64,000 bases of DNA, from contig CBDCLE010000017.1 of NCBI GenBank assembly GCA_965218585.1, positions 71,470 through 135,469 of the forward strand. The letters run 5' to 3'. The position numbers and the translations under genes were made by a program. Positions 62 through 58,708 of this stretch are shown here, in pieces. A model generated the notes under the pieces. That model worked only from the letters and a program-made list of their open reading frames with translations, was not told the origin of the DNA and did not search any database. The stretch is from Terriglobia bacterium (lineage in GTDB: Bacteria; Acidobacteriota; Terriglobia; 20CM-2-55-15). Every line of letters begins with the position of its first letter. Within the stretch, counting starts at the first letter, position 1.

Positions 62-1023
62 CTAAAAACCCTCAAGTTCCGGTTGTCTGTATCGAAACAA
101 TCGATTGGCAACGAATCGAAGTTCGTATGGCGCTCGGTAAAAACGCGTCCGATAGCGCCAGGCGCCCAGCGCTTTCATAGCCACTGCCTGCCAGGCTTTT
201 AGTTTGATATCCGATATCGTGGGATACCTCGCGTTGAGCACTATCTCGAAGTTCTGAATCCGCCTCAGGTGTGATGTTTTCAGCCAGGGCGTTGATGGAC
301 TTTTTCTCAGATCAAACTCTTTCCATTCCGGATCCATCCACTCCTCTAGCCGGGATGGGAAGCTGAAACCGTATTCTTGCGCCATCTGAAATAATCCAGC
401 ATCGTCAAAATGCACGGGGGAATAGACATAGATGACGATTTCTGCACTCGGATTCACTTTCTTGATTTTCCGGATATACCGAATGTCACGATCGATCTGG
501 GCATCCACGTCGGCGCCCGGAGTTCCCAGCACGAATGAAAACTCCGGCACGACACCAAACTTCCCTGCCCGATCCGCGAGTTCAAGCACCATCTCCGGAG
601 TCTGCGTGCCACCTTTATTCATGTTTTCCAAGACGTCGGAAGAACTCGACTCGACGCCGAAAAACACCATCTGAAGACCGCTTCGCGACATCTGGCGCCA
701 CGTTCTGTCGGTAAACCCCATCATGGTGTCGGGGCGCGCTTCCCCCCACCACTTTAATCCTGAACCTGACAAGCGTTTCGACGAATCCTCCAGATTGGCC
801 TGTTGCTCCGGGCATTGAAGGGCAGATCGAGGTCTCCGGAACCAAACCGTTCAGCCTCGCGAATCCGCTCGAACACTTCAACGAAATTCGAATACTGTGA
901 CTCCTGCCCGGGAGTCATGAGATCCAATATACCGTCTGAATGTTTTGGACAGAATCCACAACCGCAGGCCGCATGACCGATGAGGGGTTTCCGACAGGAA
1001 GGACAACTTACGTTTACCTTCAT
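62..1023 (-). CDS. radical SAM domain protein, split into two overlapping frames (754..1023 N-terminal Cys-rich part, 62..772 C-terminal part)
   Basis: The 62..772 frame has a GVESSSSDVLENMNKG and VLGTPG segment typical of radical SAM TIM-barrel cores. The 754..1023 frame has a Cys cluster (CPSC...CGCGFC) about 100 aa upstream, where the SAM-cluster motif is expected. The two frames overlap at 754-772, implying a frameshift or indel. Confidence 0.5.
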
Positions 1024-1082
1024 GACGATTTACCTTCACCCACCCACGTGTCCGGTAACGTCACGCATTCGGGGCAGGACGA

Positions 1083-2315
1083 TTACTGCGTAAAGGGCGG
1101 CACACTTGTGAATATTGAAAAATCGTTTAGGAAACGCAAGGCCACCACTGTCAAAGCGACATCGCTGAAAATCTGCATCGTGCCGCTGAGATCAGTCGTA
1201 TTGCTGAACAACTGGAATACGAACTGAGACATGTGGTTCAGGGGGGCCAGCGTCGTTGTTGTCATGTCGATGGTCTGACCCTCAGCGTTGAGCAGCGTAA
1301 ACGTGATGCTCGCCGTTTGACTCTCGGACGGGTTCGCATACGCGAACGCGGTCAGAAATCCTGCCTCGTCCACGAAAATGGACTGCGACGTGGCCGTAGA
1401 GGACGGGTCGACGCCAGCCTTAGCAATCAGAGTCGAACCGGAGAACTGGGAAAAGATAGCGCTGCCCGTCACTGCGATATCGGACGCCACCTTGGCGAAG
1501 CCCACGCCAATCGCACCCGAGGCGGCTGTTGAAACCAGTCGTCGACTTTTCCCACCCCCAAGCTCGAAGCTGATGGTTCCCGAAAACTGCTGGCCGGTGT
1601 TGTCGAGGAAGGCCGGCACGATCGTGTTGCCTTCCGAATCCCCAAAATCGTTAAACGTGATTGTAACGTTGGCAGTAGTGCTCGTCGCCCCCGGGTTCGT
1701 TATGAACAGCGTGGTCTTGAAACCACCACCGTCTGCAACATGAGGAAAGTAAAAGATCTCGTTCTGCGTGATCGTCGTGGCAGCAGAAACCGTGGTCTCG
1801 GCTGAATAAATGAAATCCCCCGATGACGCGAAGTTCCCATTGGCCGCGTTGCCGGCAACGTTGAAGCGAACATCTCCTGTGGAACTGCTCGAAGGAGATG
1901 TCCAGTCAAAGGAAAATGCAGCGGTATTGGTACCGGCTTTGGCAAAGGAATGCTCGATACCGCCCGGCGTTCCCAGATCAAGCTGGGTTCCACTACCAGC
2001 GGTAAAGGTTCCCGCATCCGCCCCGCCTGAATCAACAGCGGTCATCTGAAAGCCAAACAGGCTCTGACCCACGTGCATAACGGTAACGGTCAGTGGATAG
2101 GTCGTGCCAGGACTCCACTCCGAGGGCAACCCTCCGATCGTCACAGCTCCCGACCCAACGTTGACTGGCAGATCGTTATGGCACCCAAACGTGCTGCACG
2201 TGACGCCGTTCACCCCCGAACGATTCGACTCTGGACCAAGGGAATTACCCCATACAATTGCCGCCCAGGCGAGCAAGAGAACTGAAGCGAAAAACGACAG
2301 TCGATTCAGAGACAC
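1083..2315 (-). CDS. secreted hypothetical protein; N-terminal domain with CSTFGCH (CxxxxCH) plus two tandem ~110-aa beta-rich repeats (F-x-NP-type)
   Basis: N-terminal signal peptide (MSLNRLSFFASVLLLAWAAIVWG). The internal repeats FITNPGATSTTANVTITF and FAYANPSESQTASITFTL recur. It is a paralog of the adjacent 2513..3613 gene. Confidence 0.6.
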   Translation of the reverse strand: MSLNRLSFFASVLLLAWAAIVWGNSLGPESNRSGVNGVTCSTFGCHNDLPVNVGSGAVTIGGLPSEWSPGTTYPLTVTVMHVGQSLFGFQMTAVDSGGADAGTFTAGSGTQLDLGTPGGIEHSFAKAGTNTAAFSFDWTSPSSSSTGDVRFNVAGNAANGNFASSGDFIYSAETTVSAATTITQNEIFYFPHVADGGGFKTTLFITNPGATSTTANVTITFNDFGDSEGNTIVPAFLDNTGQQFSGTISFELGGGKSRRLVSTAASGAIGVGFAKVASDIAVTGSAIFSQFSGSTLIAKAGVDPSSTATSQSIFVDEAGFLTAFAYANPSESQTASITFTLLNAEGQTIDMTTTTLAPLNHMSQFVFQLFSNTTDLSGTMQIFSDVALTVVALRFLNDFSIFTSVPPFTQ

Positions 2316-2512
2316 CTTCTGACTTCCTCCATGTCCACCAAGAAATCTACTCCAGAACTATATCGAAAGGGCTTCCATCTGTTCCAAAGAAACGCATCGC
2401 ACCGTCGGCAGCCTGACCGGCGATACCGCTGAACAGGATCGCCTGTGTGGTCCATCCCCCACCGTCTACCAGATGCGGGAAGAACAGTTCGTTGGTCGTC
2501 GTCACGCCGCTT

Positions 2513-3613
2513 TCATTTGTCGGAGGCGTCGTTGCCCGACTGAATCGAACCTACAGCGCCCGGCTCACCGACCACCTCGACAGACGTCCTGAAGGCTGTG
2601 CCGAGTTCGGCCGGCGATATCGTCGCCTCGGAAATCGTCTGGAAATCGAGGTCCGCGTTGTCCAGAACAAGTTGGGCAATGGGCGCAACATTCCCTTCGT
2701 CCGGTACCAGCCGGAACGAACCGACTTGCGTGAGGGAAATAAAATCGGTCGCAACGAACTCTCTGAAACCTCTGGGGGCTAACGAGTACGTATGCACCCG
2801 TGCGGTGGCTCCGGTCAAAGCAATCGCGGTCGATTCCCCGAACGGCCTGAATTCCGAACCCTGGCTTATGAAGGCCATCGTGCCGGTAATTTCCTCATCG
2901 GTCGGATTGACTATGATCAACCGCGACGACCAGGGGCCGCCGAAAACGAAATGTGGCAGATACAGGGTGTCCGTCGAAGTCTCGGTGAGGTCCGCGACGG
3001 GCATACTGCTGAAGGTGAATTCCCCGGAATCTCGTAATGATTGTCTCAAAGCAACAACGGACACCGGCAGTGAGGCGGTAAACGTCAGCGCGCCTCGCGT
3101 TCCAGTCTCCGCATTGAACGGATCCTCCGATATAAACCGGGACGTCTGCTGGTTAGCCCCGACGGTAAAGGAGCCGGAACCGAAATCAATGTCTTCCCGG
3201 CGTGAATCCGAAAAAAAGAAATCGATTTGAACATCCTCGGCGTTGGGATTGACGATCGCCAGACCGGTATTGAGAATGTCTTCACTGAACGTGACGAATA
3301 CGCGGCCTCTCGTCACGAAGGGTGATGCAGCCACACCGGTCTCGGTCAAGAGCTCACCGGCGGAATTTCTAAACCCGAATATCCCGACGCCCGACGGCGT
3401 AGTACTGCCGGCGCCGGGCTGGATCCGTGTATACGTCACAGCAGGAACCGGCGCGCTCCCACTGGTTATCAGAGAAACGCCTCCGCGATCCACCATGGTA
3501 TAGGAACGTTCGGAACTGCCTGACTGCGGCATGGGCGCCACCCCCCACAGGAGGGCCCCGCCGCCAAGCAAGGCTATCACTGCCAGTACAACTACTCGAT
3601 TCACGACCACCAT
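2513..3613 (-). CDS. secreted hypothetical protein, paralog of the 1083..2315 gene (tandem beta-rich IxNP repeats)
   Basis: Signal peptide with a TM-like N-terminus (VVLAVIALLGGGALLWG). The repeats AIVNPNAEDVQIDFFF and LIIVNPTDEEITGTMAFI share their architecture with the neighbouring gene. Confidence 0.6.
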   Translation of the reverse strand: MVVVNRVVVLAVIALLGGGALLWGVAPMPQSGSSERSYTMVDRGGVSLITSGSAPVPAVTYTRIQPGAGSTTPSGVGIFGFRNSAGELLTETGVAASPFVTRGRVFVTFSEDILNTGLAIVNPNAEDVQIDFFFSDSRREDIDFGSGSFTVGANQQTSRFISEDPFNAETGTRGALTFTASLPVSVVALRQSLRDSGEFTFSSMPVADLTETSTDTLYLPHFVFGGPWSSRLIIVNPTDEEITGTMAFISQGSEFRPFGESTAIALTGATARVHTYSLAPRGFREFVATDFISLTQVGSFRLVPDEGNVAPIAQLVLDNADLDFQTISEATISPAELGTAFRTSVEVVGEPGAVGSIQSGNDASDK

Positions 3614-3708
3614 CCACTTCCCCCTAACTACGCTGCACGATCAAAGAACCTATATTTTTTCATATTCGGTCTAACATCCGCCACACACCATCAAACGAAG
3701 CCGGTTCG

Positions 3709-4413
3709 TCAGGGTTTCCGCGTCGGCCGCATGACAACTTCACTGATGAAGCTGTTGGCCTCGGCGGCCACCAGCATTCGGACGGCATGGGCCACGTCCC
3801 CCGGCTGCAACATGCGTTCTCTGGATTTCCCCTCCGTTTCCTTGGGCGAAAACGTCGTATTGGTTGAACCCGGACAAAGGACAGACACACGAACCCCGTG
3901 TTCACGCACCTCCTGGTAGAGCGCTTCTGAAAATCCAACGACGCCAAACTTGGACGCACAATAAAGGGCGCGGCCGGCTGATCCAACCTTGCCGGCAATC
4001 GAAGCGATGTTGATGATGTGCCCCCGTTCCCTTTCCTTCATCTGCGGCAGGACGAATCGGCAAGTGAGGAAGAGTCCCTTGAGGTTGGTATCGATGACGC
4101 GATCGAAATCGTCCAATACAGACTCGGTCACCTCACCGAAGTGGTAGACACCTGCTGAATTCACCAGAACGTCAGCGGGACCCAAATGCCTCTCGGCCTG
4201 TTCGAAGGCCTGCTGAACTTCACTCTCAACTCGCAAGTCCGCAGGAAGGACCATCGAACCCGGCACCTCGGCCGAGGTCTCCTCCAACTCGGATCGCGTG
4301 CGCGAAACCAGGACCACGCGCATCCCCAGTCGGCCCAGTTCGACGGCAACGGCCCTGCCGATCCCTCGGCCCGCGCCTGTCACTATCGCAACTTGATTTT
4401 CCAACGAAATCAT
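3709..4413 (-). CDS. SDR family oxidoreductase (short-chain dehydrogenase/reductase)
   Basis: VAIVTGAGRGIG Rossmann motif, NSAG, and the catalytic YCASK (YxxxK). The internal Met at 4413 is preferred over the upstream ORF start at 4455. Confidence 0.85.
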   Translation of the reverse strand: MISLENQVAIVTGAGRGIGRAVAVELGRLGMRVVLVSRTRSELEETSAEVPGSMVLPADLRVESEVQQAFEQAERHLGPADVLVNSAGVYHFGEVTESVLDDFDRVIDTNLKGLFLTCRFVLPQMKERERGHIINIASIAGKVGSAGRALYCASKFGVVGFSEALYQEVREHGVRVSVLCPGSTNTTFSPKETEGKSRERMLQPGDVAHAVRMLVAAEANSFISEVVMRPTRKP

Positions 4414-4565
4414 AGAACTAACCACCGGGGCGCAGAGACATAGAACACACCGCAAAGACGCTTAGACGCAAAGGACCTTGATTCGATTTCCCCAGCGTTC
4501 TTCTTGGCGCCTTTGCGGTGAAAATCCGTCTCTCTGCCTTCGTGCCTCTGTGGTTCATAGTCTCT

Positions 4566-6347
4566 CTAGTCACCTTGAACCGTTGCGAGCTCCTGCTCCT
4601 TGTACTGCAACTGATAGAGTTTGAAATACAGTCCTCTCTGGGCGAGAAGTTCCTGATGGGAGCCGATCTCCCGGATCCGTCCCGTGTGCATGACGATAAT
4701 TTTGTCACACCGTTGGATCGTCGACAGCCGGTGCGCGATGATTATCGACGTCCGTCCACGCATCAGTCGTTCGATCGCCCTTCCGATCTGGCCTTCGGTC
4801 TCCGTATCCACGCTTGAGGTCGCCTCGTCCAAAATCAGGATCTCCGGATCGTGTGCGAGGGCACGAGCAAAAGCGAGGAGCTGTCGCTGTCCAACGGATA
4901 AGGTGGTCCCCCGCTCGTTGACGGGGTGTTCCAGGCCCTTTTCAAGTGAACGGATGAAAGGCCCCAGATTCACGTCTTCGGTTGCCTGTCGAATTTTTTC
5001 CGTTGATATGTCGGAACCGAGCCGAATGTTGGACTCCAGAGTTCCGGAAAACACGAATACATCCTGCAATACAACGGCAAACCGACGGCGCATGTCGTCC
5101 AGATCCATAGTTGAAATATCGACACTGTCGAGCAGGATGCGGCCCTTCTGGATATCGTAGAAACGCGTCAGAAGACTGGTCACGGTTGTCTTCCCCGCAC
5201 CCGTGTGGCCGACAATCGCAACGGACTCGCTTTGCCGGACACTGAACGAGAGATCTTTCAGTACCCAATCCTCGTCGTTGTAAGCAAACCAGACATCCTG
5301 AAATTCGATCTCTCCTCGAGCTTCGGCGATCGCGCTTGGTGTGGGAGGAGAAAGAACCGTCGGGGCGGTGTCGAGCAGTCTGAAGATCCGTTCGGAACTG
5401 GCCATGGCCGACTGCAGGATGTTGTATTTTTCACTGAGGTCCGCGATGGGACGAAAAAACCGCTGCGAATACTGAATGAAGGCGATCAGGGCTCCCAGGG
5501 TGAGAATACCGGTCAGGACCTGTCCCCCACCGTACCAGATGATCAGCGCAATCGCTGTCGCGCTCAGAAGTTCGACGATGGGATAGAAGATTGCGTAGGC
5601 CATGATGGAATCGAGGTTCGCCTGCAGGTGCTCACGGTTGATGAGGTCGAACCTCTCGGCGCTCTTGCGCTCACGGTTGTAGAGCTGAACCACGCTCATC
5701 CCCGTAATGTGTTCGTGGAGGAAGGCGTTGATTTTCGCGATCGCGATCCGGACACGGCGGTAACCGTCTCTCGCCTTCATCCGGAAAATTGCAGTGGTCA
5801 CGCCGATAAACGGGACGATTGCCAGGACGATCAGGCCCAGACGCCAGTCCAGAACCAGCAGCACGATCATGATGCCGGTCAGAGTAAATATGTCTCCAAA
5901 AACGGAGACGATACCGGCGGAGAACATTTCATTGAGAACATCGACGTCCGTCGTAACGCGCGTGATAAGGCGCCCGACAGGATTGCGATCGAAGAAGCTG
6001 TTCGAGAGGCTCTGGATGTGGTTGAAGATCTGGCGCCTCATATCGAACATGATTCGCTGTCCCGTACTCTGGAGCGTGTAGGTCTGAAGGAAACCAATGC
6101 CATACTTCACTACGAGCAGACCAAAGTAAGCCGAAGCAATCAGCGAGAGCCCACCCATGTTGCCTTGAAGGATGTAGCGATCCACGGCGATCATCGTCAG
6201 CCACGGAAAACTGATTTCAATCAGCGACTCCACCATGATGAGAAGAAACGCGAACAGCACTATCTTGCGGTACGGCAGAAGGTAGACCATCAGCCGCCGC
6301 ATGAGCCGGGAGTCGTATGCTTTGCCTAGTACTTCTTCTTCCTGCAT
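4566..6347 (-). CDS. ABC transporter permease/ATP-binding protein (type I exporter half-transporter, MsbA/LmrCD-like)
   Basis: Six-TM N-terminal domain, Walker A GHTGAGKTT, signature LSVGQRQLLAFARAL, Walker B ILILDEATSSVD. Confidence 0.9.
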   Translation of the reverse strand: MQEEEVLGKAYDSRLMRRLMVYLLPYRKIVLFAFLLIMVESLIEISFPWLTMIAVDRYILQGNMGGLSLIASAYFGLLVVKYGIGFLQTYTLQSTGQRIMFDMRRQIFNHIQSLSNSFFDRNPVGRLITRVTTDVDVLNEMFSAGIVSVFGDIFTLTGIMIVLLVLDWRLGLIVLAIVPFIGVTTAIFRMKARDGYRRVRIAIAKINAFLHEHITGMSVVQLYNRERKSAERFDLINREHLQANLDSIMAYAIFYPIVELLSATAIALIIWYGGGQVLTGILTLGALIAFIQYSQRFFRPIADLSEKYNILQSAMASSERIFRLLDTAPTVLSPPTPSAIAEARGEIEFQDVWFAYNDEDWVLKDLSFSVRQSESVAIVGHTGAGKTTVTSLLTRFYDIQKGRILLDSVDISTMDLDDMRRRFAVVLQDVFVFSGTLESNIRLGSDISTEKIRQATEDVNLGPFIRSLEKGLEHPVNERGTTLSVGQRQLLAFARALAHDPEILILDEATSSVDTETEGQIGRAIERLMRGRTSIIIAHRLSTIQRCDKIIVMHTGRIREIGSHQELLAQRGLYFKLYQLQYKEQELATVQGD

Positions 6348-6415
6348 CTAACCTGCCGCTCTACTTTCCAGAATAGATCTTGCAATTCCCTGCATCTCAT
6401 CCGCTTCAAGAAACA

Positions 6416-8173
6416 TCATTCCGCTACGTCCAGTTCGTCTTCCAGAAGCTGGCGTTGATGGAGTTCGGCGTACTGCCCTTCAAGCGCCAGCAGTTGATCA
6501 TGAGTACCCCTCTCGACGATCTCCCCGCCGTCGAGAACTACGATTTCGTCCGCACCCTTGACGGTCGATACGCGATGGCTGATCAGGAGTGAAGTCCGGT
6601 CCTGCATCACGGTTCTCAGTTCGTCGAGGATCTGCTCTTCGGTATACGTGTCTACGCTCGACAACGCGTCGTCGAGAATGAGAATCCTGGGGTCTCGAAC
6701 CACGGCCCGGGATATTGCCGTCCGCTGCTTCTGCCCACCAGACAAGGTGATGCCACGTTCACCAACCAAAGTCTCAAAGCGTTTAGGAAACTGGTCTATA
6801 TCCTCGTATATGTTAGATATATGAGCTGCCTTCTCAACCTTAGCCTCAGATACTTCATCCACTCCAAAGGCGATGTTTTCAAAGATTGTCTCGCCGAACA
6901 GGAACGTGTCCTGGGGAATGAAACCGATCGAACGCCGGAGACGCTCGAGGGGAAACCGCTCTATAGGAATCCCGTCGACAAAGATCGACTTTTCGGGCGC
7001 GTTGTACAGGCGCGGGATAAGTTGCGCCAGAGTGGATTTTCCTGCACCTGTCGAACCCACAATCGCCAGCGTCTTGCCCTGGGGAATGGTCAGGGAAACA
7101 TCCCGCAGCACGGGCGTGCCGTTGTAAGCAAAGCTGAGGTTGCGCAGTTCAATTTCTCCCCGGATCTCGTTGTCCACACAGTCGGGCGAGTCTGCGATCT
7201 CGGGAACCGCATCGAGTATGTAGTTCAACCGCCTCATCGACGCCCGACCGCGTTCCAACAGGTTGACCACCCAACCCAACGCGATCATTGGAAAGGCCAG
7301 CATGCCCAGGTATACCGTGAACGCGACGAAGTCTCCCAGGGTGATAATTCCAGAGACGACCTGCCTTCCCCCAAACCAGATGACGGCGACCGTCGCAAAT
7401 CCAATCGTGAACTGCATCGTGGGGTAGAACAGACTGGTCACACGGATCAAATCCATGTTCTTGTCCTGCAAGCTATGGTTCAGCCCGTCGAACTCGGCTT
7501 TCTCGTGCTCCTCCTGCACGAAGACCTTTACGACACGGATCCCGGACAAGCTTTCCTGTACGCGGGCACTGAGGCTGGCCAGGCGCTGCTGCGATTCCTC
7601 GCTCAGGACATGGATGCGCGAACCGAATTGGCGCACACCGTAAGAAATCAGCGGCAGAGGAAGCAACGCCACGAGCGTCAACCTCCAGTCGATACTCAAC
7701 ATCAATCCAATGGCAATCGTCGTGGTGAGGACCGTATTCGCCGTGTACATGATTCCGGGACCGAGCAACATACGCACATTACTCAAATCGTTCGTCGCCC
7801 GCGACATGAGGTCCCCGGTAAAACTTTTCTGGAAGAACGAGAGTTCAAGCTTCTCCATGTGCGCGAACACGTCGCTCCGCAGGTGGTACTCGATCCGGCG
7901 GGAGACCCCGATCATGAGCCACCTCATGAGAAACCGGGAGATACCCTGGAAGACGGTCAGTCCGACGATCAGTCCGGCATACAAGAGGAGCCTGTCGCGG
8001 GTAATCTCCTCGCTGAGGCTGTCGATGCCATACCGGATGACCCAGGGGTTAGCCAGCGAGAAGGCCGACGTGGCGACGACACAGACCAACCCCGCCATCA
8101 TCCTGGACTTATATCTTTTGAGATAAACGATTAACCGGGATAAAGTACTGGTTTGGGACCTTTCGAGGGGCAT
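6416..8173 (-). CDS. ABC transporter permease/ATP-binding protein, partner half-transporter of a heterodimeric exporter
   Basis: Walker A GSTGAGKST, signature LSGGQKQRTAISRAV, Walker B ILILDDALSSVD. It lies 69 nt upstream of the second half-transporter gene on the same strand. Confidence 0.9.
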   Translation of the reverse strand: MPLERSQTSTLSRLIVYLKRYKSRMMAGLVCVVATSAFSLANPWVIRYGIDSLSEEITRDRLLLYAGLIVGLTVFQGISRFLMRWLMIGVSRRIEYHLRSDVFAHMEKLELSFFQKSFTGDLMSRATNDLSNVRMLLGPGIMYTANTVLTTTIAIGLMLSIDWRLTLVALLPLPLISYGVRQFGSRIHVLSEESQQRLASLSARVQESLSGIRVVKVFVQEEHEKAEFDGLNHSLQDKNMDLIRVTSLFYPTMQFTIGFATVAVIWFGGRQVVSGIITLGDFVAFTVYLGMLAFPMIALGWVVNLLERGRASMRRLNYILDAVPEIADSPDCVDNEIRGEIELRNLSFAYNGTPVLRDVSLTIPQGKTLAIVGSTGAGKSTLAQLIPRLYNAPEKSIFVDGIPIERFPLERLRRSIGFIPQDTFLFGETIFENIAFGVDEVSEAKVEKAAHISNIYEDIDQFPKRFETLVGERGITLSGGQKQRTAISRAVVRDPRILILDDALSSVDTYTEEQILDELRTVMQDRTSLLISHRVSTVKGADEIVVLDGGEIVERGTHDQLLALEGQYAELHQRQLLEDELDVAE

Positions 8174-8228
8174 CGGCCTACCATTCTACATTTATTGGAG
8201 TGGGCTTTTAAACCGGGCCCCCGGAAGT

Positions 8229-8256
8229 GGAGTCTAAAGTTATTGTAGGCGTTCCC
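8229..8256 (-). promoter_or_regulatory. candidate ECF-type promoter (GGAAC-N16-GACTC) upstream of the ABC/SDR/rSAM cluster
   Basis: The minus strand reads GGGAAC gcctacaataacttta GACTCC about 55 nt upstream of the ABC start at 8173. This is only a loose match to ECF -35/-10 consensus. Confidence 0.25.
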
Positions 8257-8376
8257 GATGGACGCCTGGAGACAGAACCACTGTCATACCAATAAGTTCG
8301 GGAATGTCGAGCAAGAAGACCATGGATCAGACCGCGATTACTGCCATGCCGGTTTCGACGACGGAAAGGGATGAGG

Positions 8377-9741
8377 GAGGTCGTTCCAATCGGTGTGTAA
8401 AAAGAGAAGGCGGTGTACGCTTTCGGTGAATCCGAAACCCTAAGCAATCCCGGCAGCAACCGGGAGAAAGGTACACCACCCATGAAGAAGAAGAACATAC
8501 CGGCATCAGTGGCGTCAACGAACGCGTATGAAGGTTTGGAGGACTGGGCGCGATCCCGGGTCCAAGTCTGGCTACAGGAGCTGCTCGAGGACGAAGTCAC
8601 TCAATTTCTGGGTCGGGAAAAGTCGGAGCGGAGTCCGAATCGACGAGGATACCGGAACGGTCACGGGAAGCCGCGACGCTTCGCAATGATGAACGGTACG
8701 ATGGAGGTTCGACGACCTCGGGTTCGAAACACCGCCGAGCGGTTCGAGAGTCAGATCCTGCCGTATTTTCGACGGAAATCGAAACAGCTGGGCGAGCTAC
8801 TTCCCGATCTCTACCTCCACGGTCTGGCCACAGGGGACTTCGAGCAGGCCATGCGCGGACTGCTTGGCGCTGGCGCTCCGTTGTCGCGAGCATCGATCCA
8901 ACGACTGAAATCGACCTGGCAGTTGGAGTATGACGAGTGGGTCCAGCAGGACCTGTCCGGCCTCGAGGTCGTGTACCAGTGGGCAGACAGCTTGTACGTG
9001 AAAGCGGGGATCGCGAAAGAGCGAGCGGCATTGCGGGTGATCATCGGAGCCTTGTCAGACGGGCGCAAAGTGGTGTTGGCCTGTGAGAGCGGGCAGCGGG
9101 AAAGCAAGGAGTCCTGGAGCCGCATTCTGCGCAATCTCCAGAGACGGGGCCTGAAGCTGGGACGGCTGACTGTCGCGGACGGTCACCTGGGCATCTGGTC
9201 CGCGCTGGCCGAGCAACAGCCCCAGGGCCAGGAACAACGCTGCTGGAACCACAAGTCGATCAACGTGGTCGATCATCTGCCGAAGACCGAGCAGCCCGCG
9301 GCCAGACAGCTGCTCCATGGGATGGCCTTCGCGAACTCCCGCGCGGCCTGCGAACGAAAGCGGGATCAGTTCGTCCGCCGATATGAGAAGAACTATCCCA
9401 AAGCGGGTGAGACGCTGTTGCGGGACTGGGACCGGATGATTACTTTCTATGAGTTCCCGAAACAACACTGGGTGCATCTGAGAACAACCAACATCGTCGA
9501 ATCGCCTTTCGACATGGTTCGCCTCCGTACCAACGCCGCTCGCCGATTCAAGCGTGTCGAGAATGCAACGGCAATGATCTGGAAGCTACTACGTGTCGCT
9601 GAGAAGGCTTGGCGACACTTAAAAGGATCCGAACTCTTACAAGAGGTCTATGATGGTCAGCAATTCGCTGACGGCATCAGAGTCGTGATGAAATCGAAGG
9701 CCGCCGCCTGATGACTTTTACACACCTTTTGTAATGACCTC
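8377..9741 (+). mobile_element. IS256-family insertion sequence, complete copy (1365 bp) with imperfect terminal IRs and an 8-bp target-site duplication GGATGAGG
   Basis: IRL GAGGTCGTTCCAATCGGTGTGTAAAAAG versus the reverse complement of IRR GAGGTCATTACAAAAGGTGTGTAAAAG (about 22/26 identical). GGATGAGG occurs at 8369-8376 and again at 9742-9749. The element encodes an IS256/mutator-type transposase. Confidence 0.85.
8482..9711 (+). CDS. IS256-family transposase
   Basis: Typical C-terminal IS256 motifs (DRMITFYEFPKQHWVHLRTTNIVESPF). It is about 99% identical to the transposase at 56901..58130. The MKKK start at 8482 is preferred to the upstream extension at 8413. Confidence 0.9.
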   Translation: MKKKNIPASVASTNAYEGLEDWARSRVQVWLQELLEDEVTQFLGREKSERSPNRRGYRNGHGKPRRFAMMNGTMEVRRPRVRNTAERFESQILPYFRRKSKQLGELLPDLYLHGLATGDFEQAMRGLLGAGAPLSRASIQRLKSTWQLEYDEWVQQDLSGLEVVYQWADSLYVKAGIAKERAALRVIIGALSDGRKVVLACESGQRESKESWSRILRNLQRRGLKLGRLTVADGHLGIWSALAEQQPQGQEQRCWNHKSINVVDHLPKTEQPAARQLLHGMAFANSRAACERKRDQFVRRYEKNYPKAGETLLRDWDRMITFYEFPKQHWVHLRTTNIVESPFDMVRLRTNAARRFKRVENATAMIWKLLRVAEKAWRHLKGSELLQEVYDGQQFADGIRVVMKSKAAA

Positions 9742-10284
9742 GGATGAGGACAGAGACCTTGTATCCCGATACCTGTCTGGAGATATGATCGCCTTTGACG
9801 AGTTGATGACCCGCCACGAAAGGCAGATCTACAGACTCTGCTTCCGGTTTGTGAAGAACCCGGAAGACGCCATGGATCTGACTCAGGAAGTCTTCATCAA
9901 GGCCTTTGAGAAACTCACTGCTTTCCGGGGGATGCCCGGTTCAAAACATGGTTGTATCGCGTTGCGGTCAATCATTGCCTGAACCACGTAAAGAAAAACT
10001 CCCGGGAGTTTGTCGAAGTCAACGAAAGTATTGGAAGCGTCGGTCCGTCTTCTCATAACAGACTGCTTGAGAGAGAACGGCGCGATATCGTAAAGCAGCT
10101 CATGGGGAACCTCCCTCCGAAGCAGAAGGCGATTCTCGAGCTGCGAATGAACGACAATCTGAGCTACGAAGAGATTGCAGGCATACTGGGACGATCGGTT
10201 TCGACGGTCAAATCCAGCGTCTTCTTCGCGCTCACCAAGCTCAAGAAGATGGTCGCCCAACAGGCGGCTGCAGGCCAAATGTGA
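9734..10284 (+). pseudogene. ECF sigma factor (sigma-70 family), disrupted
   Basis: Region 2 (DLTQEVFIKAFEKLTAFRG / FKTWLYRVAVNHCLNH) and region 4 (LSYEEIAGILGRSVSTVKSSVFFALTKLK) are recognisable. The native start ATG 8346 plus about 10 codons is separated from the body by the IS256 insertion. In addition, a -1 frame break in a G5 run near 9927-9931 splits regions 2.1/2.2 into the ORFs 9734..9982 and 9952..10284. Confidence 0.8.
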
Positions 10285-10333: not shown

Positions 10334-10972
10334 ATGCTTAGCTACTTCAAAGGATTCAGGCATCTGAGGGCCAAAGAGTTCATGACCCTTCTCGATGGTC
10401 TCGACCTGGGGGGGGATCGCCGAACCCACCTCCGAGAGTGTGCCAACTGCAGAACGACTCTGGCTTCGATCGCAGAATTGGGGCAGGACATATCGGAATC
10501 CGAGGGCGTGGACGCTGATACCACCCACGCGGCGGTCGCGAATGCGGACTGGGTTCGGCTGCGTTCTTCAGTCAGGGACCGACTGCTTGCACGTGCCGTC
10601 AAGCGTGATTCGGTTCTGCAGCGATGGACAGGGTGGACCGGCCTGCCGACCCCGGTCTGGAGCCTCGCTCTCCTGGCCCTTGTTACCGGGATGGCCGTTG
10701 GTGGATTTTGGCAATATCAGACAGTTCAGCTGACGGATGAAATAACGGAGATTTCGTCGAACGAAGGCGTAAACTTGTCTTCGACCGAGTCCGGCTCCGA
10801 GTTCGGGCTGTTTCCCGGGGACGCCGAAATCATCGAGGCGGAAGCTCTGGCCTGGTCCCAGACCGAGATCTTCACTTCCCTGAACGAACTGGAATCGGGT
10901 GAAGAAGATGTGCTCCGGGAGCTGATTTCCCTGGCTTTTGCCGAAGCTTCGATCTTTGACGAGTCGAGGTAA
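10334..10972 (+). CDS. zinc-binding anti-sigma factor (ZAS-type, single TM)
   Basis: HLRECANCR (HxxxCxxC) motif at the N-terminus, a TM helix VWSLALLALVTGMAVGGFW, and an acidic periplasmic tail. It lies immediately downstream of the ECF sigma gene. Confidence 0.75.
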   Translation: MLSYFKGFRHLRAKEFMTLLDGLDLGGDRRTHLRECANCRTTLASIAELGQDISESEGVDADTTHAAVANADWVRLRSSVRDRLLARAVKRDSVLQRWTGWTGLPTPVWSLALLALVTGMAVGGFWQYQTVQLTDEITEISSNEGVNLSSTESGSEFGLFPGDAEIIEAEALAWSQTEIFTSLNELESGEEDVLRELISLAFAEASIFDESR

Positions 10973-10988: not shown

Positions 10989-11552
10989 ATGAAAGTTCTA
11001 TCCATCGCCATAATGACGCTGACCATGCTCGTCGGGACGGGTCTGTCAGCGCAGTCGTCCCGGGAAGGTCCGGTCATCCTGAAGGTTCGGCCACAGCAAA
11101 GATCCGGACAGGGGAGAAACCTGCGCGCTCCGGATGTCGCATCAATCCAGGAAGTCATTGAGGGTTTCTACGTCAGCCGTTTTCAGATGGAACTGGAACT
11201 GGACGATGAACAGTTCGCGCGGGTGCTTCCGAGGCTGAGAAACTCGCTGAGGGAATGGAATGAGGCAGGACAGAGACATGCTCGAGCGCTCAATCAGCTA
11301 CGACAGGCGATGCGAGCCAATGCTCCTGACGACGAGATTGCCCGGCGAATCGAAGAAATAGACGAAAGCGACATCGCCCTGCGGGCCATCCAGGAAAACC
11401 TGTTGCGTTCGGTCGATCCCGACCTGTCTCCCCGGCAGCGTGCCCGCCTGCGCATCGTCCAGCCCAACCTTGAAGAGCGGATCCGAAATATGATCGAGCG
11501 TTCCCGCGGCCGCCCCCCTCAACCCCCGCGTCCCCCCCAACCTCCTCGATAA
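10989..11552 (+). CDS. secreted/periplasmic hypothetical protein (possible Spy/CpxP-like LTxxQ-type helical protein) with a Pro-rich C-terminus
   Basis: Signal peptide MKVLSIAIMTLTMLVGTGLSAQS, Arg/Glu-rich helical repeats, a PRQRARLRIVQPNLEE motif and a PPQPPRPPQPPR tail. It is the third gene of the sigma/anti-sigma module. Confidence 0.45.
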   Translation: MKVLSIAIMTLTMLVGTGLSAQSSREGPVILKVRPQQRSGQGRNLRAPDVASIQEVIEGFYVSRFQMELELDDEQFARVLPRLRNSLREWNEAGQRHARALNQLRQAMRANAPDDEIARRIEEIDESDIALRAIQENLLRSVDPDLSPRQRARLRIVQPNLEERIRNMIERSRGRPPQPPRPPQPPR

Positions 11553-13039: not shown

Positions 13040-13272
13040 ACGAGGCTCTCTTCTATCACGGGGTCCGACCCAACCAAAAACGTTTCCCGTATAGTGGATC
13101 AATCCCGAACAGGTAAACTAGTGATCTGTAGCACCCGTATCGGGCCCAGTGTTGCGGTCAAACGGCATTGGATTCTAGGAGTCACCGACGAGGAAATGCC
13201 CTGCATTGTGAGGAGCTGACGACAACGAAGACGATGCCATTTCGCAGCAATCGCTGGCAGATGGAGAGGCAG

Positions 13273-27101: not shown

Positions 27102-27710
27102 CTACTCTCCCACCAACCTCACCAGCTCAGCGTAAACCTCTTCGACACGCCTCCGTGTATCTTCCAGCGACCCCGAATTATCCACAACGAAATCAGCGTG
27201 TCCTGCCTTTTCCTCGAGAGGCATCTGGGATTCAATCCTGGCCTCAATGGCCTCGGGCGTCAAACCGGGGCGCCCAGCAAGACGGTTCCGTTGCTGCTGG
27301 GGCTGGCAGGTCACCACCACCAGTCGATCGAATCGTTTGTAGCCTCCTGACTCGACCATCAACGCTGCATCGACAATAGCAATGGCGTTCGGATCTTCAC
27401 GTCGGACACTTTCCAGAAATGCGTCCTGGCGCGCCTTGACTGCAGGATGCACAAGCGAATTCAGTGTTTCTCGTTGGGAACGCTCACTGAAGACGATGGC
27501 AGCCAGCTTTGACCTGTCGATCCCTCCTCCCTCATCGAGAATCCCGGGACCGAATTCGGCAACGACCGCCTCATGCACTTCTTCGCCGGCTTCAAATAAC
27601 TCGTGTGTGATCTGGTCAGAATCGATCAGGCGACAACCCAGTGCGACGAACATCTCCCCGACGCGCGTCTTGCCACAGCCGATCCCTCCTGTGAGACCGA
27701 CGCTCAGCAC
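27102..27710 (-). CDS. coaE: dephospho-CoA kinase
   Basis: P-loop GLTGGIGCGKT. The ORF has an N-terminal extension; the start is likely GTG/ATG near 27710. Confidence 0.8.
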   Translation of the reverse strand: MLSVGLTGGIGCGKTRVGEMFVALGCRLIDSDQITHELFEAGEEVHEAVVAEFGPGILDEGGGIDRSKLAAIVFSERSQRETLNSLVHPAVKARQDAFLESVRREDPNAIAIVDAALMVESGGYKRFDRLVVVTCQPQQQRNRLAGRPGLTPEAIEARIESQMPLEEKAGHADFVVDNSGSLEDTRRRVEEVYAELVRLVGE

Positions 27711-27981
27711 GAGTGACCTGTACCACCCATATTGGGACCAGCGCCGATGGGTCCTGCGGGTGAGATCGCGGCGGGAGACGGAAGTCGATGTTTTCGCATC
27801 GACGACGGCTCGCAACAAAGATATCGCCCGCAATCCCCATCGGCCCGGAGGGTTGAGGCGAAACGGCGCCGTCTTCGTTGTCGTCGACTCGTCGGAATGA
27901 GGAGCATTCCCTCCTCATCGACTCCTAGAATCCGGAGTCGTTTGGCCGCAACGCTGGTCCCAATATGGGTGGTACAGGTCA

Positions 27982-28920
27982 CTAGATGTCTCTCCGCAGG
28001 CGGGCTCCGGTTATCGTGTTCTTCATCAGTACCGCTATCGTCATGGGTCCGGCGCCACCGGGAACAGGAGACAACATCGACGCAACTTCCAGTGCATCCC
28101 GCTCATGAACGTCGCCCGCCCAGATGTAGCCCCTCTTGTCGAATTGGTCGAGCCGCGGCGACTCTTCGCCGAACAACCGCTCGACCTCGTCCCGATCCGT
28201 CACCTGATTCGTCCCCACGTCAATGACGACGGCACCCGGCTTTATGAAATCGCCGGTCACCATCGCGAGGCGACCAATTGCTGCCACGACGATATCGGCC
28301 TCTCGTGTGACCGAAGCAAGATCCCTCGTCCGCGAGTGACAGATCGTGACCGTCGCGTGCCGGTGCATGAGCAGCATCGCCATGGGTTTGCCTACATCGT
28401 CACTACGGCCCAACACAACTGCCCGTGCTCCTTCGATCTGCACCCCGGACCTCTGAAGCATCTCCAGAACACCCAGAGGTGTACAGGCCACGAGGCCCTG
28501 GTGACCGAGAACAAGTGAGCCAATATTGGAGGAATGAAATCCATCGACGTCCTTGAGGGGAGCGACAGCCTCCAGAACCCTGTGTTTATCAACCTGCTCA
28601 GGCAGAGGCAACTGGACGAGAATGCCGTCGATCGAGTCGTCCTTATTCAGTTCGTCGATACGTTCAAGCAGTTCGGTCTCCCTGATGTCCTCGGGAAGAT
28701 CCAGTTTGAGGCTCCTCATCCCCAGCCGCTCGCACATTCGCGCTTTCATGCCGACATATGAAGCCGATGCCGGGTTGCTACCGACCAGGACGACCGCCAG
28801 ACCGGGTGTGACCCCTTTTCTCTTCAACATCTCAACGTCGGCGGCGACCTCTTCCTGTATCTGCTTGGCGATCCCGGTTCCGTTGATTAAGGTAGCTGCC
28901 ACAAAAAAACCTCTCTCCAT
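27982..28920 (-). CDS. folD: bifunctional methylenetetrahydrofolate dehydrogenase / methenyl-THF cyclohydrolase
   Basis: YVGMKARMCERLG, GILVQLPLP, and an NAD(P)-binding C-terminal domain. Confidence 0.9.
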   Translation of the reverse strand: MERGFFVAATLINGTGIAKQIQEEVAADVEMLKRKGVTPGLAVVLVGSNPASASYVGMKARMCERLGMRSLKLDLPEDIRETELLERIDELNKDDSIDGILVQLPLPEQVDKHRVLEAVAPLKDVDGFHSSNIGSLVLGHQGLVACTPLGVLEMLQRSGVQIEGARAVVLGRSDDVGKPMAMLLMHRHATVTICHSRTRDLASVTREADIVVAAIGRLAMVTGDFIKPGAVVIDVGTNQVTDRDEVERLFGEESPRLDQFDKRGYIWAGDVHERDALEVASMLSPVPGGAGPMTIAVLMKNTITGARLRRDI

Positions 28921-56870: not shown

Positions 56871-58147
56871 GAGGTCATTACAAAAGGTGTGTAAAAGTCA
56901 TCAGGCGGCGGCCTTCGATTTCATCACGACTCTGATGCCGTCAGCGAATTGCTGGCCATCATAGACCTCTTGTAAGAGTTCGGATCCTTTTAAGTGTCGC
57001 CAAGCCTTCTCAGCGACACGTAGTAGCTTCCAGATCATTGCCGTTGCATTCTCGACACGCTTGAATCGGCGAGCGGCGTTGGTGCGGAGACGAACCATGT
57101 CGAAGGGCGATTCGACGATGTTGGTCGTTCTCAGATGCACCCAGTGTTGTTTCGGGAACTCATAGAAAGTAATCATCCGGTCCCAGTCCCGCAACAGCGT
57201 CTCACCCGCTTTGGGATAGTTCTTCTCATATCGGCGGACGAACTGATCCCGCTTTCGTTCGCAGGCCGCGCGGGAGTTCGCGAAGGCCATCCCATGAAGC
57301 AGCTGTCTGGCCGCGGGCTGCTCGGTCTTCGGCAGATGATCGACCACGTTGATCGACTTGTGGTTCCAGCAGCGTTGTTCCTGGCCCTGGGGCTGTTGCT
57401 CGGCCAGCGCGGACCAGATGCCCAGGTGACCGTCCGCGACAGTCAGCCGTCCCAGCTTCAGGCCCCGTCTCTGGAGATTGCGCAGAATGCGGCTCCAGGA
57501 CTCCTTGCTTTCCCGCTGCCCGCTCTCACAGGCCAACAGCACTTTGCGCCCGTCTGACAAGGCTCCGATGATCACCAGCAATGCCGCTCGCTCTTTCGCG
57601 ATCCCCGCTTTCACGTACAAGCCGTCTGCCCACTGGTACACGACCTCGAGGCCGGACAGGTCCTGCTGGACCCACTCGTCATACTCCAACTGCCAGGTCG
57701 ATTTCAGTCGTTGGATCGATGCTCGCGACAACGGAGCGCCAGCGCCAAGCAGTCCGCGCATGGCCTGCTCGAAGTCCCCTGTGGCCAGACCGTGGAGGTA
57801 GAGATCGGGAAGTAGCTCGCCCAGCTGTTTCGATTTCCGTCGAAAATACGGCAGGATCTGACTCTCGAACCGCTCGGCGGTGTTTCGAACCCGAGGTCGT
57901 CGAACCTCCATCGTACCGTTCATCATTGCGAAGCGTCGCGGCTTCCCGTGACCGTTCCGGTATCCTCGTCGATTCGGACTCCGCTCCAACTTTTCCCGAC
58001 CCAGAAATTGAGTGACTTCGTCCTCGAGCAGCTCCTGTAGCCAGACTTGGACCCGGGATCGCGCCCAGTCCTCCAAACCTTCATACGCGTTCGTTGACGC
58101 CACTGATGCCGGTATGTCCTTCTTCTTCATGGGTGGTGTACCTTTCT
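56871..58147 (-). mobile_element. IS256-family element, second copy (inverted relative to copy 1), missing about 88 bp of its left end including IRL
   Basis: Right end GAGGTCATTACAAAAGGTGTGTAAAAG is identical to copy 1. Identity to copy 1 stops 20 nt upstream of the transposase ATG (at 58147). No target duplication can be assessed. Confidence 0.8.
56901..58130 (-). CDS. IS256-family transposase (copy 2, ~99% aa identity to 8482..9711)
   Basis: Same protein as copy 1, with about 5 substitutions (e.g. EKSERS>EKLERS, ADSLYVK>ADGLYVK). Confidence 0.9.
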   Translation of the reverse strand: MKKKDIPASVASTNAYEGLEDWARSRVQVWLQELLEDEVTQFLGREKLERSPNRRGYRNGHGKPRRFAMMNGTMEVRRPRVRNTAERFESQILPYFRRKSKQLGELLPDLYLHGLATGDFEQAMRGLLGAGAPLSRASIQRLKSTWQLEYDEWVQQDLSGLEVVYQWADGLYVKAGIAKERAALLVIIGALSDGRKVLLACESGQRESKESWSRILRNLQRRGLKLGRLTVADGHLGIWSALAEQQPQGQEQRCWNHKSINVVDHLPKTEQPAARQLLHGMAFANSRAACERKRDQFVRRYEKNYPKAGETLLRDWDRMITFYEFPKQHWVHLRTTNIVESPFDMVRLRTNAARRFKRVENATAMIWKLLRVAEKAWRHLKGSELLQEVYDGQQFADGIRVVMKSKAAA

Positions 58148-58708
58148 TGCCCGCAACCAATCGATAACGAAAGGATCCCCGGACCCGGGCGGCAAGATGT
58201 CGCTGGTGCTGTCAATCCTGCTGTTTCCGGCAAAGAACATCAGCTTGTTGGGCTGAGTGCTGGTTGGCAAAGGCGCAAACCACTGGTCACAAACGGCGAA
58301 CTCGTTTGCCAGAAACGTTGTGATGGGCACGGCGCCCGGCCGTTGGAATCCCATCACTTCGGGTTCGGTCGGGTCAGGGATCTCGAAGCCTCTCTCTTGG
58401 GCATACTCGAAGTACGAACGGGCAAAGCCGTTCATACTGTGACCGTTGCCGCTTTTCGCAAGCTGGACGGCGATTCTCTCCCGTGCGTGTGGCGCATCGC
58501 CCGGCAACCACTTGTCTCCTGCTTCGAAGGGAAAGAACGACTTGCTGCCAAACCGATTCTCGTAGTCGGAGCGCTCAAGCGGGCGATGCAATCCGTTGAC
58601 GTCCCTGCCGAGGTCGTAGCTGAGGTGTCCCAGCATGTGGTCGAAGGAGCGGTCTTCGAACATCAGATAGACGATCGTGTCAACGAGTCTGGGGTCTGTC
58701 ATGAGCAC
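58148..58708 (-). pseudogene. phosphoesterase family protein (PlcC/AcpA-type phospholipase C/acid phosphatase) N-terminal fragment, 3'-truncated at the IS copy 2 boundary
   Basis: N-terminal motif TIVYLMFEDRSFDHMLGHL is typical of Pfam phosphoesterase (PF04185). Only about 185 aa remain before the IS sequence, whereas full-length members are 500-700 aa. Confidence 0.65.

Follow-up and report, generated by a model that had tools for sequence, protein, structure and literature searches.

A conserved and partly decayed Terriglobia neighbourhood of ECF sigma factor, ABC exporter and short-chain dehydrogenase genes, with surface proteins and an apparent radical SAM deletion scar downstream

This analysis concerns a block of minus-strand genes at positions 62 to 8,173 of a 64,000-nucleotide stretch of DNA (the window) from a Terriglobia bacterium (contig CBDCLE010000017.1), together with the extracytoplasmic function (ECF) sigma factor module that diverges from it. 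The region is best explained, with a probability of roughly 0.6, as a conserved three-layer Terriglobia locus that has partly decayed in this strain, in which the radical S-adenosylmethionine (radical SAM) open reading frame (ORF) is a scar and the surface proteins are not cargo of the ATP-binding cassette (ABC) exporter. The first layer would be an autoregulated ECF sigma factor, a zinc anti-sigma factor and a CpxP/Spy-like protein, which together may sense extracytoplasmic stress. The second layer would consist of two half-transporters (ABC1 and ABC2) of the ABC_membrane class, like MsbA and SmdAB, and a short-chain dehydrogenase/reductase (SDR), divergent from the same region of ~150 nt. 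The best guess is that this core exports from the cytoplasmic membrane a small molecule or lipid of lipophilic or envelope-derived nature, which would be reduced or oxidised by the SDR; it would be a detoxification or envelope-maintenance pump and not a protein secretion system. The third layer would be formed by one or two Sec-exported proteins with a choice-of-anchor V (choice-V) head and a beta-sandwich module, which in some members of the clade follow the core and are presumably not carried by the pump. The radical SAM sequence would come from a neighbouring cluster for envelope modification, with two methyltransferases, a membrane glycosyltransferase of the GT87 type and B12-binding radical SAM proteins, that is largely deleted here. 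In this strain, moreover, the sigma gene is interrupted by an IS256-family element and frameshifted, and the gene of a 508-aa surface protein is truncated.

The window proteins were compared by tblastn with 85 fetched loci, the relatives being metagenome-assembled genomes of Terriglobia/Acidobacteriota. The genes for the periplasmic protein, the anti-sigma factor and the sigma factor diverge from ABC1, ABC2, SDR and the surface protein(s), in this order, in L001-L004, L007-L012, L017, L018, L023, L028 and L033, and the identity of the ABC proteins falls to 65-72% across syntenic loci. A preliminary description of the block, made from the sequence of the window, had presented it as one uncharacterised system of two exporter half-transporters, an SDR, two secreted paralogs and a radical SAM enzyme next to an ECF module. 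The neighbourhood from the sigma module to the secreted protein(s) is indeed conserved and uncharacterised (13 Terriglobia/Acidobacteriota loci, ABC identity down to ~65%), and the gene-neighbourhood comparison that had been proposed places the radical SAM gene outside the unit. The core composed of ABC1, ABC2 and SDR facing the sigma module seems to be the tight part of the locus, because it occurs without surface proteins and genes of the 410-aa surface protein type (P410-type, ~53% identity) are found in unrelated neighbourhoods (L005, L006, L013 and L016). A metagenome scan with an SDR profile gave three true orthologs (L086-L088), the other 77 loci being unrelated SDRs with at most 45% identity; in L087 and L088 the gap between ABC2 and SDR is 3-4 nt and neither a toast-rack nor a choice-V gene follows. 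The surface proteins thus appear, by comparison of loci, to be a frequent but dispensable downstream addition.

The deeper-branching loci L011, L017, L018, L023, L028 and L033 have a lipoprotein of ~285 aa between SDR and surface protein, which matches Pfam Toast_rack_N and LiaF-like_C; in L017, there is a 4-nt overlap between its gene and the SDR stop codon. Such a lipoprotein directly after the SDR recalls the LiaF/toast-rack systems (Lia, Psp-associated); however, neither the window nor its closest relatives have the gene, and no LiaRS or PspA/PspC partner was seen. The envelope-stress flavour that had been suggested for the block finds some support in this lipoprotein, but not in the promoters, where the ECF-type motif faces the sigma gene and not the ABC operon. 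A surface protein that forms a single chain of 670-850 aa, with a choice-of-anchor V head followed by the module typical of the 508-aa protein (508-type module), is encoded in five of these loci (L017, L018, L023, L028 and L033). As a separate observation, a CHRD-domain protein is inserted between ABC2 and SDR in L004 (4766-7219) and L009 (4717-7168, in several ORFs), and its C-terminus carries the GGG.W.T...NP beta-sandwich repeat of the surface proteins.

Both half-transporters contain ABC_membrane and ABC_tran domains according to Pfam and NCBIfam (PF00664 with E-values from 1e-52 to 1e-55, PF00005 at about 1e-29), as had been described. The Walker B motif of ABC1, ILILDDALS, is without the catalytic glutamate, and its DD is kept in 7 of the 7 orthologs checked; ABC2 has a consensus Walker B (DEATS) and a deviant signature, LSVGQ (LS[VS]GQ in 7 of 7 orthologs checked). 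This asymmetry between Walker B and signature is the mark of heterodimeric exporters with one degenerate site, e.g. TM287/288 and BmrCD. Because the DD Walker B of ABC1 pairs with the deviant signature of ABC2, the two proteins are predicted to be an obligate heterodimeric exporter with one degenerate ATP site. TM287/288, BmrCD, LmrCD, EfrCD and SmdAB/MdlAB are likewise encoded by two adjoining half-transporter genes, with one consensus and one degenerate site. The best NCBIfam models are MsbA, SmdA and SmdB, all under their equivalog cutoffs: ABC1 scores 448.6 bits with MsbA (TIGR02203, cutoff 602) and 441.2 with SmdA (cutoff 845), and ABC2 scores 460.7 with MsbA and 418.5 with SmdB (cutoff 746). 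Unlike SmdAB, the pair stays far below equivalog scores, and it is coupled to an SDR gene and a divergent ECF sigma module across Terriglobia.

The third gene of the core encodes a classical SDR by Pfam and NCBIfam, in agreement with the preliminary description. Its translation contains TGAGRGIG, NSAG and YCASK, with residues that are invariant in 8 orthologs, and its true start is probably at 4413 rather than at the end of the called ORF (3709-4455), the orthologs opening with MISLENQ. The top NCBIfam SDR models are FabG-type 3-ketoacyl reductases, under their cutoffs.

These matches could also be read as an envelope lipid or glycolipid module, in which an MsbA-like heterodimer flips or exports a lipid (lipopolysaccharide precursor, hopanoid or another membrane lipid of acidobacteria), the SDR reduces its head group or chain, and both work with the methyltransferase/GT87/B12-radical SAM/O-antigen-ligase-like cluster that is intact in relatives. 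MsbA is the top NCBIfam match of both halves, the FabG-type models lead for the SDR, and a cluster with GT87, B12-binding radical SAM, methyltransferase and sulfotransferase genes lies directly downstream in L004, L011, L017 and L023. Nevertheless, none of the MsbA and FabG scores reaches the equivalog cutoff; L002/L003 lack the cluster, and in L008, L028 and L033 none was detected within 10 kb; in the window it is mostly deleted whereas ABC and SDR genes are intact; and a heterodimer with a degenerate site is typical of drug exporters such as TM287/288 and BmrCD, not of the MsbA homodimer. This explanation is considered unlikely, although it is the strongest of the rivals to the three-layer locus.

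An exporter next to genes of large secreted beta-rich proteins also resembles type I secretion (HlyB/HlyD/TolC, PrtDEF), and there are NCBIfam matches of the HlyB/PrtD type. However, the window region and the 13 syntenic loci yielded no genes of membrane-fusion proteins (MFP, HlyD family) or outer-membrane factors (OMF), Pfam and NCBIfam gave no peptidase or CLD domain (C39/CLD) in ABC1 or ABC2, and the putative cargo carries signals of Sec type at the N-terminus, not secretion signals at the C-terminus. Type I secretion was rejected on the grounds of the missing MFP/OMF genes and of the Sec signals. The idea of a dedicated exporter of the secreted proteins is unlikely for the same reasons, and also because exporter and secreted proteins each occur without the other.

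Both surface proteins open with a hydrophobic N-terminal signal sequence and share a repeated beta-sandwich domain, and to this extent the description of two secreted paralogs stands; their similarity is weak, the architectures differ and the 366-aa protein of the window is truncated. The alignment of the 410-aa and 366-aa proteins has a BLASTP E-value of 8e-5 (5e-11 without composition correction) and 21% identity, so that they seem to be, at best weakly, distant paralogs only. The truncation is seen by comparison with L001, a second assembly of the same strain (99.96% identity to the window over 12 kb): the 12 nt at 2523-2534 of the window correspond to 272 nt in L001, whose gene encodes 508 aa, close to the orthologs (505-542 aa). 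The net deletion of 260 nt breaks the frame of the window gene after 366 codons, and the last 55 codons persist in another frame. The profile and structure searches that had been proposed for the pair gave different results for each protein. Residues 14-173 of the 410-aa protein match the NCBIfam choice-of-anchor V model (NF041895) with 91.8 bits, above the cutoff of 42, and Pfam Reeler weakly; AlphaFold predicts three beta-sandwich domains, with a pLDDT of 81 for the whole protein and 90.5 for residues 24-190. The 508-aa protein had no Pfam or NCBIfam match. Its module, with 40-45% identity, follows N-terminal heads of dozens of unrelated kinds (LRR, NHL propellers, cyclophilin, reprolysin/trypsin proteases, cellulase, lipase), and because of this variety it is taken as a promiscuous acidobacterial C-terminal module and not as a partner specific to the locus. 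Related to this module, which has ~470 aa, it was observed that its last ~50 residues form a conserved half-domain, FPHLV.GGG..TQ..LFSG.AGQ...G..RF...G..F...L, present in the L001 gene at 8443-9969 (window 2347-3613) and at the C-termini of the L017, L023, L028 and L033 proteins; too short for a full beta-sandwich, it may complete another domain or be a sorting signal.

The gene that had been taken for a radical SAM enzyme of the unit proved to be a fragment. ORF 62-772, which starts with TTG, corresponds to residues 282-517 of a 517-aa B12-binding radical SAM protein of L017 (75% identity, tblastn). Pfam Radical_SAM (PF04055) reaches 21.8 bits, under the cutoff of 29.5, and covers profile positions 90-154 only, and the B12-binding domain (PF02310) had no Pfam match in this ORF. 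The L017 ortholog has both domains, and its GCPFLCGFC motif lies upstream of the deletion point, without counterpart in the window; the ORF is thus a 3' remnant that lacks the B12-binding domain and the CxxxCxxC motif. Its sequence is weakly like the C-terminal part of class B radical SAM methyltransferases (HpnJ, PhpK and C-methyltransferases of ribosomally synthesised and post-translationally modified peptides, RiPPs; NCBIfam E-values from 1.8e-6 to 1e-2), but the N-terminal 281 residues, including both elements that define this class, are deleted.

The ORF is overlapped by another one, 754-1023, which encodes 89 aa and is homologous only to the first ~81-83 residues of 293-aa methyltransferases (tblastn). 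Genes for these methyltransferases follow the secreted-protein genes in L004, L007, L009, L011, L012, L017 and L018, and the full-length L017 protein matches Methyltransf_11/25. Because the 3' half of the radical SAM gene and the 5' end of the methyltransferase gene overlap where L017 has ~5.5 kb between them, this part of the window reads as a deletion scar joining both genes. The junction is at ~757-781, and the ~5.5 kb of L017 sequence up to radical SAM codon 281 that are gone from the window comprise the rest of the methyltransferase, a second methyltransferase, a membrane protein with GT87 and PD40, and another B12-binding radical SAM protein. The same scar is found in L001. In the closest other species (L002/L003) the gene of the 412-aa protein is followed directly by glnD/glnE, with no radical SAM gene; in other relatives this gene is 7-9 kb away, within a separate methyltransferase/GT87/B12-radical SAM cluster. 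A role of the radical SAM protein as RiPP or modification enzyme for the secreted proteins was rejected, the ORF being a 3' fragment and the gene being missing from the closest relatives. Separately, the next gene downstream in L001 (12279-13711; it starts at window position 37 on the minus strand and runs off the window) encodes another B12-binding radical SAM protein. In this 4x-coverage assembly its B12-binding part (198 aa) and its Radical_SAM part (281 aa) fall in separate ORFs that are not in the same frame, which points to either a further pseudogene or a homopolymer error.

In a one-system model along the lines of the preliminary description, radical SAM enzyme and SDR would modify the secreted paralogs, or a product bound to them, and the ABC heterodimer would export them, all under the ECF sigma factor. 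The six minus-strand ORFs are co-directional as that description had stated (62-772, 1083-2315, 2513-3613, 3709-4455, 4566-6347 and 6416-8173) and the gaps are short (59-197 nt); the ABC/SDR/secreted-protein synteny is conserved, and B12-binding radical SAM and methyltransferase genes lie downstream in L004, L011, L017 and L023. On the other hand, the radical SAM ORF of the window is a dead fragment without its catalytic half and has no counterpart in L002/L003, the secreted proteins have Sec-type signals and the exporter has neither a peptidase/CLD domain nor adjoining MFP/OMF genes, ABC-SDR genes occur without the secreted proteins and these families without the ABC genes, and the ECF motif is aimed at the sigma gene only. 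Such a single system is hardly credible, and the idea of a new radical SAM/SDR/exporter system for secreted paralogs should not be pursued in that form.

The three-layer locus includes the divergent module of ECF sigma factor, zinc anti-sigma factor and periplasmic protein, which is present and conserved as had been indicated, with the qualification that the sigma gene of the window is split by an insertion sequence (IS) and frameshifted. The IS belongs to the IS256 family: it encodes a Mutator-type transposase (PF00872, E 7.7e-60), ends in inverted repeats of 26 nt (8377-8402 and 9716-9741) and is flanked on both sides by an 8-bp target duplication, GGATGAGG (8369-8376 and 9742-9749). Once the IS and one copy of the duplication are taken out, the sequence can be aligned over its full length with the sigma gene of L003, which is intact and encodes 196 aa; this places the insertion after sigma codon 18. 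The window gene is also one G short in the run 9927-9931 compared to L003, and this frameshift explains why the sigma ORFs 9734-9982 and 9952-10284 overlap and are read in different frames. The 82-aa fragment matches Sigma70_r2, whereas the intact 196-aa orthologs have Sigma70_r2 and r4; no intact sigma factor with regions 2 and 4 is encoded in the window, and any sigma control has probably been lost in this strain. The anti-sigma factor has the zinc motif H32-LRE-C36-AN-C39 (numbering of ORF 10334-10972) and a weak NCBIfam anti-sigma match (E 0.0015), and its gene is syntenic in 9 loci; in relatives, the gene of the periplasmic protein is found in synteny with those of the sigma and anti-sigma factors.

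In the sigma-ABC intergenic region (~150 nt), GTTTA is invariant inside a conserved motif (alignment A2). The sequence AAACC-N17-GTCTAA has a single match in the 64-kb window, where 0.18 would be expected by chance, and AAAC[CT]-N16-18-GTC[CT]AA occurs as one copy per locus, in the sigma-ABC intergenic region and directed towards sigma, in 13 of 13 syntenic loci. We take AAACC/GTCTAA to fit the AAC/GTC pattern of ECF promoters, by its likeness to the E. coli sigma-E consensus. A more relaxed pattern gave three scattered extra matches (L003, L009 and L033), none near the operon. An ECF promoter before the ABC, SDR or surface-protein genes was considered and rejected, the strict pattern being found solely facing sigma in the window and the 13 syntenic loci. 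The candidate promoter of the ABC operon is a sigma-70-like element whose -10 box ends 9 nt before the ABC1 ATG and whose -35 box overlaps that of the ECF motif on the other strand; the candidate is kept in the closer relatives (A2) and may drive the ABC operon. The module resembles the RpoE-RseA type and, in its zinc motif, RsrA, RslA and ChrR, which likewise combine a sigma factor with r2 and r4, an HxxxCxxC anti-sigma factor with one membrane segment and a promoter of AAC/GTC type that looks autoregulatory. It differs from the known modules of ECF sigma factor and zinc anti-sigma factor (ZAS) in that the third gene encodes a CpxP/Spy-like periplasmic protein, there is no second promoter copy before the adjoining operon and the sigma gene is broken.

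Several points weigh against the three-layer locus as proposed. The first one is the promoter search upstream of 8173 that the preliminary description had recommended as a test of ECF dependence: no ECF-type motif faces the ABC, SDR or surface-protein genes in the window and the 13 syntenic loci, so that ECF control of the ABC operon seems unsupported by motifs and the link between sigma factor and pump would consist in conserved divergent synteny alone. Co-transcription of the six ORFs is suggested by the short gaps and by the lack of terminator-like sites in any intergenic gap of the block (all such matches are inside ORFs). The 13 syntenic loci were retrieved via the surface protein, which biases its co-occurrence upward, and the converse case, a core without surface proteins, consists of two short metagenome contigs (L087 and L088). 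As for the SDR, no NCBIfam match reaches the equivalog cutoff. Finally, low-coverage long-read assembly (4x according to the L001 contig name) could have introduced both the 260-nt indel and the frameshift in the G-run by error, but the frameshift is found in both assemblies, which differ at five single-nucleotide polymorphisms. With these points in mind, the neighbourhood of ECF module and heterodimeric ABC exporter plus SDR, with or without toast-rack lipoprotein, is proposed as a target for envelope-stress studies in a phylum with almost no genetics, and the window documents its decay by IS256 insertion, frameshift and deletions. The features described are collected in Table 1.

Table 1. 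Features of the block and of the divergent sigma module, with positions in the window
Feature	Position	Strand	Basis
3' remnant (236 codons) of a B12-binding radical SAM gene, pseudogene fragment	62..772	-	Alignment to L017 ortholog
5' remnant of a class I SAM methyltransferase gene, N-terminal Cys-rich zinc-ribbon-like segment	754..1023	-	tblastn
Secreted/surface protein, 410 aa: signal sequence, choice-of-anchor V (Reeler-like, CX4CH) domain, two beta-sandwich domains	1083..2315	-	
Choice-of-anchor V / Reeler-like domain, residues 24-190 of the 410-aa protein	1746-2246	-	Homologs P0001-P0374
Second secreted protein gene, 508 aa if intact; window ORF 2513-3613 = 366 aa	2347..3613	-	Comparison with L001
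Classical SDR, 234 aa	3709..4413	-	Pfam adh_short (PF00106), E 9.5e-58
ABC exporter half-transporter 2 (ABC2), 593 aa	4566..6347	-	Pfam ABC_membrane + ABC_tran
ABC exporter half-transporter 1 (ABC1), 585 aa	6416..8173	-	Pfam ABC_membrane + ABC_tran
Sigma-70-like promoter candidate TTTAAA-N18-TAGAAT for the ABC operon	8183..8212	-	Consensus scan
ECF-type promoter motif AAACC-N17-GTCTAA facing the sigma gene	8210..8237	+	Pattern search, synteny
Sigma-gene 5' end (first 18 codons)	8322..8376	+	Alignment to L003 after removing IS
IS256-family insertion sequence, 1365 bp; transposase ORF 8413/8482-9711	8377..9741	+	Pfam Transposase_mut
Rest of ECF sigma gene, -1 frameshift in G-run 9927-9931	9742..10284	+	Alignment to L003
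Membrane-anchored zinc-type (HxxxCxxC) anti-sigma factor, 196 aa	10382..10972	+	Motif, one hydrophobic segment
Periplasmic protein, 187 aa, weakly CpxP/Spy/ZraP-like, Pro-rich tail	10989..11552	+	Pfam Metal_resist E 0.0038, under cutoff

The choice-of-anchor V domain of the 410-aa protein deserves separate attention as a candidate heme site. The protein shows the two features expected of a c-type cytochrome, extracytoplasmic location and a Cys-Xn-Cys-His motif (CSTFGCH, residues 40-46, behind the signal sequence). In N-terminally complete homologs, Cys-X(2-5)-Cys-His lies ~16 residues past the predicted signal cleavage site. Among the first 120 homologs the motif is present in 106 (81 CX4CH, 23 CXXCH), the 14 without it being N-terminally truncated or lacking the domain. 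It is also present in 137 of 144 further representatives (73 CX2CH, 56 CX4CH, 8 CX3CH); the remaining seven comprise five N-terminally truncated sequences, one with CX6CH and one unexplained. An alignment of 60 sequences shows C40, C45, H46 and H122 to be invariant, and a phmmer search over 1.84 billion representatives recovered 4049 family members, which gives a family of at least ~4000 cluster representatives at 50% identity. An invariant Cys-His end after a spacer of variable length is what heme c attachment sites show, as opposed to disulfides or metal sites. The predicted fold matches Reelin-N, as in F-spondin, and the large domain of cytochrome f. However, the Reelin-N (reeler) domain of F-spondin has neither the C...CH segment nor the conserved His, and cytochrome f is a membrane-anchored subunit of the b6f complex, whereas choice-of-anchor V is a soluble head fused to varied anchors. 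Because of the CX(n)CH pattern and the cytochrome f-like fold, covalent heme binding by this domain is likely, as judged from sequence and structural model.

A broader proposal can be built on this prediction: choice-of-anchor V domains, with their Reelin-N/cytochrome f-like beta-sandwich fold and varied cell-surface anchors, would be monoheme c-type cytochromes that have so far escaped recognition as a family, and the locus would link such a cytochrome, an ECF-sensed ABC heterodimer for export and an SDR into an extracytoplasmic redox/stress device. Taken as a whole it is tentative, and doubtful rather than probable. In the literature searched on choice-of-anchor V, reeler plus heme, cytochrome f/Reelin-N and ECF/ABC/SDR in Acidobacteria, including the ECF reclassification paper (PMC7826278), nothing specific to the locus or the domain was found. 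If heme binding were confirmed, thousands of hypothetical surface proteins of Acidobacteriota and other phyla would be re-annotated as cytochromes.

The whole locus could also be explained as a redox/cytochrome system, with the choice-V proteins as monoheme c-type cytochromes of the surface or periplasm, the ABC heterodimer as a CydDC-like exporter of a reductant or heme needed to mature them, and the SDR supplying or recycling the exported redox compound. The C-x(2-4)-CH motif, invariant in the N-terminally complete family members examined, the second invariant His, the cytochrome f-like fold and the thiol/zinc (ZAS) anti-sigma factor fit this explanation, and CydD and CydC are among the NCBIfam matches. 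Nevertheless, the CydD/CydC scores (295/233 bits for ABC2, with cutoffs of 435/329, and 251/230 bits for ABC1) are well under the cutoffs and under the MsbA/Smd scores, the ABC-SDR core occurs without a choice-V gene, most choice-V genes (~4000 representatives) are not beside such ABC genes in the loci examined, and heme binding is itself predicted from sequence and model. Such a system is regarded as quite improbable, less so than the single modification system discussed above, and the three-layer locus, with the surface proteins as an addition to a pump, is preferred.

Some further observations concern mobile and repeated sequences. Rfam and transfer RNA scans of the window returned nothing. 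The stretch is rich in IS elements: a second IS256-family copy, 99% identical, is located at about 56871-58235 (-), and a third, different Mutator-family transposase ORF of 430 aa at 62033-63325 (-). In L002 (2594-3841 and 3993-5435) there is an IS256-family transposase between sigma and ABC1, and ABC1 is called with 480 aa, compared to 561-585 aa elsewhere; L003, a second strain of this closest related species, has no IS. The L002 element looks like an independent IS256-family insertion at the ABC1 5' end, which suggests that the locus is dispensable or a frequent IS target. Besides, a sequence of ~140 nt is present in two copies in the same orientation, at 13118-13250 (+) and 27853-27985 (-), about 80% identical to each other (78% in the repeat scan, 84% by alignment) and without Rfam match even at E<=1. 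Each copy stands just upstream of an unrelated gene, an hpt-like ORF (to 13806) and a coaE-like ORF (27102-27833), and the sequence may be a leader common to both, serve in regulation or be just a small repeat.

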